DNA from: a virus
Taxonomy: Duplodnaviria; Caudoviricetes
Direction: 5' to 3' (one strand)
Length of the DNA stretch: 64,000 nucleotides
Virus record (IMG/VR): IMGVR_UViG_3300017911_001818
Location: 32,003 to 96,002 of that record
Shown here: one piece after another, positions 28,678 to 31,206 of the stretch
Layout: each line of letters opens with the position of its first letter
Position numbering within the stretch: the first letter of the stretch is position 1
Notes under the pieces: generated by a model
Databases searched by the model: none
What the model was told of the DNA's origin: nothing
Seen by the model: the letters and a program-made list of their open reading frames with translations, nothing else
Program-made: the position numbers and the translations under genes

Positions 28678-30307
28678 AATCAGAGAGGGTAACTCTTTCT
28701 GTGCTTTCAGACAGAGGAATCGGATTTTGTAACTGATTCACAACAGATGTTTGTGATGGAGCTACGGTAGAGTTATCTACTACGATATTAGTTCCGGCAA
28801 CGCCTGCACCGCCAACATCAGCTAAATTCTGTCTGCTTAATTCAAGGAGCCTAGCATCCAATCTAGCATTTCGCTCTGCGATTCTTCTGGCTGCTCCTTC
28901 TCTCCCACCCACACCAACTTCTGATTCTTCAGCGATAACCAACTCTCTGCCACCAGAGAATGGTACTGGAATCGCAATGCGAGGAATCTGAATACGTAGA
29001 TTATCGCTCAGGAATTTTAGAAGTTGATCTGGAACATTCTGAATTAAATTAACAATTTTTAACAAAGCAATTTCGGCATTAACTCTAAGTTGCCTAACAA
29101 ATTCATTCATTGCTAGACCAATTTTCTCAAAGGTTTCTGGAATAATACCTTTGATTAAATTTACAATCATTCCAACAGGAGACAGACTGAATACTGCACC
29201 AAGTGCTTCTTTCGCTTTTTCTAATGAAAACTCTCCTTTGAAGATATCGCCAACAAACGACCCGACAGCCTTTACATCCTCAGAGATTCCTCCTATTAAA
29301 TTCGAGAAAACGTCTCCAACAAAGCTACCGATCTTCTTTACGTTCTCAAAGATTCCTCCTATTAAATTCGAGAAAACATCTTGAAAAGAAAATGAATTTA
29401 AAGTTTCTTGCGCATTTTCAAAACCAAGTTTACCTAAAACGAAAGCTGCAGCTTGCTTGATTAAATCGAGTGGAGCAAAGATTAATGAATTAAAGAAACC
29501 AGTTACAGCGCCTTCAATACCACCAATAATACCGTCCTCTTTAAAACCATCTACTGCACCTTTAACAGTATCCCATGCAGTAATAAAAATTGTCAGTGGT
29601 AAAAATAGTCTACTAAAAACTTTGACTATGCCTTTAAAAAAATTAAAGACTGGCCCAAGTTTAGTCATTAATGCAGCTACCTCACTCACACCAGCTGTTA
29701 ATATTGCAACTACTGGACGTAATAAGCCAGCTATAAACCCGAAAGCGCTACCGATAATATTTAATGTTCCTCTAATGGTCTTGCGGAGATTATCGGCAGC
29801 ATCAGTCAAAAATTTAATAGAGTCTTCAACAGCAGTTGCAATTCTTGTCAGCTTTGGATTGGTTCTAAAGTCTAAAATTAAATTAGCAATACGTGTAATA
29901 ATTTGATTATCAACAAAAGTACGCAATGCAATCAAACTTTGATTTAAAGTAAAAAAGATCTTTTGCACATCATTAACAAATTTTAAAAGATTATCTTTTG
30001 CCTGATCAATAATTCCTCTTAACTGATCGTTTAAAGCTGCAACAGTCAGTAGCGACCCAGCAAGTAAAGCATCGCCTATGCCAAATGGGCTACTAATATC
30101 TTGTGTCGGAGTTTTTTGTGACTGGGATCTAGCTCGCCCTTGAGCTTCTCTCGCAGCTTCCGCATCGTCTAACTTGGATCGTTTTTGAAAGTCGAGCATA
30201 TCTTGAAAACGGTCGACAAGAGAGCTAACAACATCAGTTGTTCTACCTTGTTCTTCGTTTAACCCTAAGAGAGTATTACGAACGTCTGTGAGTGTAGCTT
30301 CTGCCAT
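28676..30307 (-). CDS. tape measure protein (gp29-like)
   Basis: Helical, G/A/F-rich; 22-aa tandem repeat; lies downstream of gp26/gp51. Confidence 0.75.
   Translation of the reverse strand: MAEATLTDVRNTLLGLNEEQGRTTDVVSSLVDRFQDMLDFQKRSKLDDAEAAREAQGRARSQSQKTPTQDISSPFGIGDALLAGSLLTVAALNDQLRGIIDQAKDNLLKFVNDVQKIFFTLNQSLIALRTFVDNQIITRIANLILDFRTNPKLTRIATAVEDSIKFLTDAADNLRKTIRGTLNIIGSAFGFIAGLLRPVVAILTAGVSEVAALMTKLGPVFNFFKGIVKVFSRLFLPLTIFITAWDTVKGAVDGFKEDGIIGGIEGAVTGFFNSLIFAPLDLIKQAAAFVLGKLGFENAQETLNSFSFQDVFSNLIGGIFENVKKIGSFVGDVFSNLIGGISEDVKAVGSFVGDIFKGEFSLEKAKEALGAVFSLSPVGMIVNLIKGIIPETFEKIGLAMNEFVRQLRVNAEIALLKIVNLIQNVPDQLLKFLSDNLRIQIPRIAIPVPFSGGRELVIAEESEVGVGGREGAARRIAERNARLDARLLELSRQNLADVGGAGVAGTNIVVDNSTVAPSQTSVVNQLQNPIPLSESTERVTLSD
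29284..29377. repeat. 28-bp exact direct repeat with 66-bp period in the tape measure gene
   Basis: AGATTCCTCCTATTAAATTCGAGAAAAC at 29284-29311 and 29350-29377. Confidence 0.9.
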
Positions 30308-30499
30308 TTATCCTGCTCTTTGTTTAATTCTTTCTGATTCTTCTTCAAGATGTGTAATTAACATGGCCAGATAAACCTCTCTCTCCCAAGGTATCATCAT
30401 TTCGATTTCATTTAATGAATAATGATGATGTTGCATCAACTGAAAATTTACCTGAAAATGATTATTCAGGTTGTCGTGAGAGAGGCATACTAAAAAAAA
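30308..30499 (-). CDS. gp51: baseplate hub assembly catalyst gp51 (not in the ORF track; probably the -1 frameshift extension of gp26; first ATG at 30436)
   Basis: ...LSHDNLNNHFQVNFQLMQHHHYSLNEIEMMIPWEREVYLAMLITHLEEESERIKQRAG; the stop abuts the tape-measure ATG. Confidence 0.88.
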   Translation of the reverse strand, partial: FFLVCLSHDNLNNHFQVNFQLMQHHHYSLNEIEMMIPWEREVYLAMLITHLEEESERIKQRAG

Positions 30500-31206
30500 T
30501 CAGCAGTTCCCTGTAACGTTAATGTGTTATCATGATCACAGTTACCACACTTAAAATCAACGTCATGTTTAAGACGTGGCATATTCTCAATAAAATCTCT
30601 AACTTTCATAAACTGATCAGTCGAGAATGATTCGATAAAAGCATTAACTTCTTCATCTGATTCATCAGCTAAAGAGAACCTTTCATCTTTCATCTGCACA
30701 GCATCAATACACTGTGCAATCATATCAAATGCTTGATCAGTTTGATTACCGTTCTTATATTTATTCATCTTTGGCGCAATATCCTTAATTGTAGGATATT
30801 TCATTTCAAGAGTAATATCGTTTGTAAGTTTTACTGTTTTTGCATTCGCACCTTTTGGTACTTTAATATTTACTTTTGAAATATCTACAGTAATCTCATT
30901 CGGAGTATCACACTCTGTACACTTTACTTGAATCGTTGTGGTTTCACCAACAGACTTTGATCGAATCTGTGTGAAGAGATACTCAATGTCAAAGATTGGT
31001 AGGCTGCGTGCACTAATCGGCTCTTCAATACAAGCCTCTAATGTATCTGCGATCGCTTCGAGCGAAATCTGCTCGTCGCCTTGTTCCAGCGCAAGCATTA
31101 ATATTTTTTCTTCTTTAACGAGGTAAGGACGATATCTTACAGTCTCTCCAGTGGAGGGAATCTTAACAGAATATTTAATCGTCTCATTAAGTTTTGGTAA
31201 AGCCAT
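30490..31206 (-). CDS. gp26: baseplate hub assembly chaperone gp26
   Basis: MALPK, IPSTG...YRP.LVKEEKIL, FDIEYLF..IRSKSVGE, two CxxC pairs, ends G..DFF. Confidence 0.92.
   Translation of the reverse strand: MALPKLNETIKYSVKIPSTGETVRYRPYLVKEEKILMLALEQGDEQISLEAIADTLEACIEEPISARSLPIFDIEYLFTQIRSKSVGETTTIQVKCTECDTPNEITVDISKVNIKVPKGANAKTVKLTNDITLEMKYPTIKDIAPKMNKYKNGNQTDQAFDMIAQCIDAVQMKDERFSLADESDEEVNAFIESFSTDQFMKVRDFIENMPRLKHDVDFKCGNCDHDNTLTLQGTADFF

Follow-up and report, generated by a model that had tools for sequence, protein, structure and literature searches.

A putative −1 ribosomal frameshift joining gp26 to a gp51-like tail in an uncultured T4-like phage

The G-T frameshift is conserved in the long-tailed phages "except T4" (Atkins et al. 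2016, PMC5009743). The work on lambda gpG/gpGT and on the −1 frameshift of the tail assembly chaperones (Levin 1993; Xu, Hendrix and Duda 2004, 2013, 2014) is represented here only by its citation in that review. The same holds for the contractile-tailed phage P2, where gpE and gpE+E' are mentioned as the products of a −1 shift located between the gene for the tube and that for the tape measure. In certain tailed phages the shifts seem to occur without stimulatory signals (PMC5009743). For T4, gp26 and gp51 are listed as hub assembly chaperones (Leiman et al. 2010, PMC3004832, Table 2). The phage requires both proteins, and gp51 is described as an essential protein whose function is unknown and which is not part of the particle (PMC3004832).

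The window analysed here is a stretch of 64,000 nucleotides taken from a 96-kb IMG/VR record (54% complete). Its source is an uncultured marine T4-like phage, and the closest isolates are Kyanoviridae-type phages of marine bacteria with about 41-43% gp26 identity. The gp26-type gene (31206-30490, minus strand; PF12322, phrog_150) encodes 238 aa in the 0 frame, the 'G' form. Directly upstream of it lies a gene of 168 aa with a tail-tube fold (31731-31225, minus strand), which matched PF06841 Phage_T4_gp19 with E 1.4e-08 and the tail tube family phrog_45 with E 1e-31. The next gene upstream of the tube gene was identified by a profile match as a gp2-like DNA end protector. A tape-measure-like gene of 543 aa (30307-28676, minus strand), likely the gp29 counterpart, matched several PHROG tape-measure families (best E 3.7e-10). 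Both overlapping reading frames, gp26 and the gp51-like segment, are situated between the tail tube gene and this tape-measure-like gene.

The minus strand has ...GGA ACT GCT GAT TTT TTT TAG at the 3' end of gp26. The slippery heptamer T TTT TTT (30499-30493, minus strand) has the form X XXY YYZ in the gp26 phase, lies within a run of eight T (30499-30492) and is directly followed by the 0-frame stop TAG (30492-30490). In the −1 frame a TGA is found at 30502-30500, so that this frame opens precisely at 30499. It continues to 30308 with 63 sense codons and a TAA, encoding the gp51-like 'T' segment FFLVCLSHDNL...IKQRAG (phrog_634), and the TAA (30310-30308) adjoins the ATG of the tape-measure gene at 30307. 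The earliest start codon in the −1 frame of the window is the TTG at 30439, downstream of the SHDNL...NFQ segment. The predicted products are gp26 with 238 aa and a −1 fusion with 299 aa. An earlier note on this DNA had placed the heptamer right before the gp26 stop, which proved correct to the base. When the sequence was re-read, the −1 frame opened at the heptamer and ran for 63 codons to the tape-measure ATG exactly as described there. The SHDNL...NF segment was said to have no normal start, and the first −1 start codon is indeed located further downstream. The proposed gene order of tube-fold gene, gp26, gp51 and tape measure was borne out by the profile matches, and the proposed sizes of 238 aa and about 299 aa agree with the computed ones.

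We consider it highly probable that the gp26/gp51 locus uses −1 programmed ribosomal frameshifting, a reading drawn from sequence comparison, without fusion-protein, ribosome-profiling or reporter data. It would be a known type of recoding, supported here in the only group of phages that was believed to be without it.

The relation to the T4 proteins was analysed with profile and sequence searches. The window's gp26 matched PF12322 (T4_baseplate) from profile position 2 to 218 of 219 with E 6.4e-62 and 209.5 bits (cut-off 24.5), and phrog_150 'baseplate hub' with E 4e-67. The −1 peptide matched phrog_634 'baseplate hub assembly catalyst' (gp51) with E 1e-25. It also aligned to positions 231-276 of the gp26 profile phrog_150, and therefore some members of this family carry the tail in frame. 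T4 gp26 (208 aa) and T4 gp51 (249 aa) both belong to the same family, PF12322, as the window's gene. T4 gp51 contains a complete PF12322 domain (residues 1-201, E 3.9e-52) that is followed by a 48-aa tail matching phrog_634. As judged from these matches, T4 gp51 is a gp26 paralogue plus exactly the extension that the frameshift would add in the window. The combination of a PF12322 body and a phrog_634 tail in one chain is met only by the −1 fusion, and BLASTP aligned residues 24-283 of the fusion with residues 15-244 of T4 gp51 in one alignment, straight across the junction. The initial statement that gp26 and gp51 are normally separate genes holds for the T4 pair but had to be refined, since T4 gp51 already contains a gp26-like domain; the fusion, and not the short reading frame, is therefore the true equivalent of gp51.

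T4 gp26 aligned up to ...GLKEFF, three residues before its end (...GLKEFFELL). The FF of T4 gp26 is placed opposite the FF at the C-terminus of the window's gp26, and both proteins stop at the same place. In T4, genes 26 and 51 (L083:2803-3429 and L083:3480-4229) are adjacent, divergently transcribed paralogues without a slippery run, whereas the window has one gene and a proposed −1 slip. At the corresponding site T4 gene 26 reads GAG TTC TTT, and such a broken T-run is expected because the slip is no longer needed with two genes. The two-gene layout is found in Klebsiella Marfavirus, too. When the 96-kb record was searched, only one PF12322 gene was detected. Since the record is only 54% complete, a second, separate gp51 gene beyond the recovered part cannot be excluded.

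The window's pair has the same position as lambda G/GT, between the tube and tape-measure genes. In the profile search no sequence similarity of gp26 to the G/GT families was detectable. The window's gp26 is about twice as long as G/GT and has an added four-Cys zinc-ribbon-like module, and its heptamer is of the type U UUU UUN instead of the lambda-type G GGA AAG. The protein family of P2 gpE/gpE+E' also differs from gp26. We then compared an AlphaFold model of gp26 (pLDDT 86.9, pTM 0.80) with 48,161 chains by exhaustive structural alignment, and the top chains matched residues 1-95. The N-domain was matched by 3fgx, an uncharacterised Bacillus protein, with Z 8.3 and by 3klu, YqbN, with Z 6.9; the latter we take to be a tail chaperone of the XkdN type from a prophage. 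The HK97 tail assembly chaperone 2ob9 matched residues 1-91 with Z 7.1-7.4 and an rmsd of 3.3 Å over 85 residues and was the best match of the N-domain among the named PDB chains. In the second-look list the next unrelated chains had Z 4.6 and below. Foldseek searches of the PDB with the gp26 model returned nothing at E <= 0.001 (E 0.44 only), and phmmer searches of the PDB sequences gave chance-level matches only. The predicted structure is thus suggestive of a tail assembly chaperone fold in the N-domain, but Z values of 7-8 are in the grey zone and may reflect a common arrangement only. In the rest of gp26, two CxxC hairpins aligned with zinc-ribbon proteins.

The conservation of the slip signal was followed in 80 related loci from viral contigs and two isolate loci. 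All 82 loci contain both parts, and they include 66 unique gp26 sequences with 40-96% identity. Relative to gp26, the gp51-like segment has the −1 phase in 82 of 82 loci, and an in-phase NNT TTT TTN is present in each of the 66 unique sequences. Because heptamer and −1 phase recur in every related locus, their coincidence is, by this comparison, more than chance. The last base of the heptamer is free (T 33, C 28, G 3 and A 2 in the unique loci), as position Z of a slippery heptamer should be. In 65 of the 66 the gp26 stop follows within 0-1 codons, and in one locus after 8 codons.

The codon usage at the site is unusually constant when compared with similar columns. All 66 sequences have TTT as their first Phe codon, whereas six other conserved Phe columns show 9-35% TTC. 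The codon before the Phe pair is always NNT despite a varying amino acid (GAT 35, AAT 26, AGT 4, TCT 1), whereas the share of NNC at other Asp/Asn columns is 13-52%. Since TTT and NNT are invariant at the site and TTC and NNC are common at comparable columns, the alignment indicates that selection acts on the heptamer at the nucleotide level, through the choice of synonymous codons and beyond the Phe-Phe pair alone.

Conservation is higher in the −1 tail than at the end of gp26, and in the alignment of the fusions it is strong from the slip site onwards (consensus FF..LSHD.L.N.Y..NF..MQHH.YSL.E...M.PWERE.Y). Between the opening of the −1 frame and the LSHD block (LSHDxLxNxYxxNF) no ATG, GTG or TTG is present in 58 of the 66 unique loci. 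The first ATG is found 15-16 codons further on, and 29 codons further on in six loci. When the 63-aa segment was used for tblastn, 506 phage records were obtained, of which 501 covered at least 80% of the segment. Among the alignments listed, the match starts at residue 1 of the segment and inside the annotated 'baseplate hub' gene. On these coding grounds, translation of the −1 segment from the slip site is supported.

These data also bear on the possibility that the locus consists of two ordinary genes without a fusion, gp26 and a small self-initiated gp51, which in the window would have 43 aa from the TTG at 30439 or the adjacent ATG. GenBank records do annotate gp51 reading frames of 34-61 aa. 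A Met is conserved 15-16 codons beyond the LSHD block in most loci, and in KVP40, S-CRM01, RHph_Y68 and Moby an ATG is present just past the gp26 stop. However, the 16-20 most conserved codons are upstream of any start in the 58 loci mentioned, the tblastn homology begins at the heptamer within the gp26 annotation, and T4 gp51 is a full-length gp26-like protein and not a small peptide. The fixed −1 phase and the synonymously kept heptamer would be left unexplained by two separate genes, and we regard this arrangement as improbable. The conserved Met of the LMQHH motif, about 15-16 codons into the tail in most loci, could permit some independent initiation.

The same 299-aa protein would be made if the RNA polymerase slipped on the T8 run and added one U, since a single inserted U yields an identical product. 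Bacteria and phages are known to show such slippage on long A/T runs (PMC5009743), and T8 is present in the window and in half of its relatives. The T-run of the unique loci has a length of 6 in 33, 7 in 1 and 8 in 32 loci, and the half with T6 only (T TTT TTC/G/A) is too short for efficient polymerase slippage. To judge from this comparison, the kept feature is the codon phase of the heptamer and not the length of the homopolymer, which favours ribosomal over polymerase slippage. In addition, the helix 6 nt downstream suits a ribosomal mechanism. Transcriptional slippage should be marked by a homopolymer of about 9 or more that is kept irrespective of the codon phase; this was not met, with runs of 6-8 and an invariant phase. 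Slippage of the polymerase is very unlikely as the explanation, and it may contribute.

A homopolymer miscount (in reality T9 and a single 299-aa reading frame) or a recently broken gene can practically be dismissed: homopolymers are error-prone in some sequencing chemistries, but contigs of other metagenomes at 96%, 78-82% and 54-56% identity show the same T8 and then the stop, more distant contigs have T6 and a stop within 0-1 codons (8 in one locus), finished isolate genomes show the same pattern, and a miscount is ruled out because half of the unique relatives have T6 only and still keep the heptamer phase. The relatives therefore have what the earlier note had expected of them, a conserved T-run in −1 phase to gp51. 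None of the contradicting findings that a sequence comparison could reveal was made: the relatives show neither TTC at the first Phe codon nor a variable phase, the conserved start of gp51 is without a start codon in 58 of 66 loci, and a homopolymer error is excluded by the T8 or T6 of independent metagenome contigs.

The RNA downstream of the heptamer was analysed for a structure that could accompany a ribosomal frameshift. A long-range helix was found with its 5' arm GCCUCUCUCA in the Leu-Ser-His codons (30486-30477, minus strand), which starts 6 nt after the heptamer, and its 3' arm UGGGAGAGAGAGGU in the Trp-Glu-Arg-Glu codons (30388-30375, minus strand), about 88 nt downstream of the 5' arm. 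The MFE fold of the 135 nt from the heptamer on had a z of −3.2, and in the window this fold is closed by GCCUCUCUC (30486-30478) pairing with GAGAGAGGU (30383-30375). The helix was specified after the sequences had been viewed and was then tested in an ungapped alignment of 62 sequences (A1) as a 10-bp helix of columns 26-35 with 124-133. In this alignment 84% of the helix cells were paired, compared to 80.3% in the shuffles, and the observed value was reached by 0 of 500 shuffles. When the partner was slid, the pairing was 38-61%.

Five helix pairs change on both sides, which was observed in 1 of 500 shuffles. The two informative pairs, 27-132 and 30-129, join synonymous third positions and are either C-G or U-A. 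To exclude a GC3 artefact, they were compared with all 156 combinations of a Y-variable and an R-variable third position, where they ranked first and second with a phi of 0.70 and 0.59 (background mean 0.03, sd 0.21). RNAalifold predicted no consensus structure on the 62-sequence alignment. One clade (L015-L022) breaks part of the helix, and the window sequence can adopt two helix registers. In KVP40 the helix fits, by eye, only in a shifted 5-bp register, and the helix claim is limited to the window's wider clade. With a long-range helix after its heptamer the window's site differs from the tailed-phage shifts that were noted to lack stimulatory signals (PMC5009743).

Two further observations concern the nucleotides around the slip site. 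An almost invariant AGG/GGG triplet is located at 30511-30509 (minus strand; columns 1-3 of A1), with a distance of 10 nt to the heptamer downstream of it. Although it is reminiscent of the Shine-Dalgarno-like element that stimulates frameshifting in dnaX, it overlaps a conserved Gly codon and is not separable from a protein constraint; in two loci without that Gly (L074 and L058), the AGG is one codon further upstream or absent. The gp51 tail after the slip site (30320-30498 of the window) was the only part of a 3.8-kb region that blastn aligned with distant cyanophages and a pelagiphage (70-77% identity), which fits a joint constraint on protein and RNA structure.

For the proposed −1 ribosomal frameshift, the following course of events can be envisaged. 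Most ribosomes on gp26 would read GAU UUU UUU and terminate at UAG, which would give the 238-aa form. A minority would slip back by one base, when the tRNA-Phe in the P and A sites re-pair on U UUU UUU. The shifted ribosomes would then read UUA GUA UGC... and add 61 residues, resulting in a fusion of 299 aa whose coding frame stops immediately ahead of the tape-measure gene and which has a junction peptide spanning ...TADFFLVCLSHDN.... The helix 6 nt past the heptamer, which would close a domain of about 88 nt, probably pauses the ribosome on the slippery site, and the adjacent 0-frame stop may assist the slip. How often the slip occurs would set the ratio of the short to the long form.

The short and long forms would correspond to T4 gp26 and gp51 and hence to the lambda-like G/GT chaperones. 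By analogy, the shared body may bind the tape measure or hub protein, and the extra tail may recruit a tube or hub partner. We think it reasonably likely that the two forms act on the tape measure or hub as a chaperone pair of the G/GT kind, an inference that is less certain than the mechanism. What we observed directly is how the sequence is built and conserved, that it is homologous to T4 gp26 and gp51, and that positions of the RNA covary. The occurrence of the slip, its efficiency and the binding partners of each form are inferred, and the roles are assigned after the example of T4 and lambda. Should the slip occur, gp26 and gp51 would have a concrete, testable role as short and long tail/hub assembly chaperones acting on gp29. 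The U UUU UUN sites, each with a covarying helix after it, would offer a natural series for studying how frameshift efficiency is set.

The heptamer T TTT TTC/T/G followed by a gp51-like tail in the −1 frame was also found in KVP40 (Schizotequatrovirus) and Aeromonas phage Ah1 (Cinqassovirus), in the Kyanoviridae P-SSM4, S-CRM01, Melnitz, Mosig and C48C1, in the Pootjesviridae Rhizobium phage RHph_Y68 and Agrobacterium phage OLIVR5, and in Stenotrophomonas phage Moby and a 350-kb Klebsiella jumbo phage. In the Ackermannviridae Salmonella phage Maynard (L085:3790-3960) and Vibrio phage 1.244.A (L093), a −1 tail (MPWHL...) was observed without a canonical X XXY YYZ. The Ackermannviridae junctions read GAA ATT TTC ATT TAA and CTT TTT CGC TAA; these tails could be reached by a single-tRNA slip or by initiation at a nearby GTG or ATG. 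Because the heptamer and −1 tail recur across the phages listed above, the frameshift layout appears from their genomes to be the usual arrangement, with that of T4 in the minority. Provided that the slip takes place, T4 ceases to be an exception: most T4-like phages would rely on the frameshift, and in T4 the two forms would simply have been divided between two genes.

A more far-reaching scenario is that the slip is ancestral to the entire T4 superfamily, that gp26 is a true but very divergent homologue of the lambda/HK97 G-type proteins, that G/GT is universal in long-tailed phages, that the two T4 genes arose by a late duplication which replaced the slip, and that the covarying helix sets the ratio of the forms and is a new type of stimulator. 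We hold this scenario only tentatively and lean slightly against it as a whole; the ancestral state of the slip is inferred only.

A joined CDS annotation was absent from every record that was inspected in detail. These records show a 'baseplate hub assembly catalyst' of 34-61 aa instead, a hypothetical protein or nothing, and in the Maynard record the tail is wholly unannotated. No paper on a gp26-gp51 frameshift was found in the literature searches. A real slip would call for corrected annotations in several hundred phage genomes, where the conserved start of 'gp51' is now left untranslated.

Some other genes of the window were also noted. A gp32 homologue is present elsewhere in the window. 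Amid the tail and packaging genes, a 174-aa reading frame (32842-32318, minus strand) gave a weak, above-cut-off match to the sulfotransferase family PF03567 (E 3e-05) with its N-terminal part only; it would be an unusual auxiliary gene for a T4-like phage. A reading frame of 149 aa (33288-32839, minus strand) contains a TnsA-like endonuclease N-terminal domain (PF08722, E 2.5e-18) and is probably a mobile or homing-type nuclease inserted in the structural gene block.
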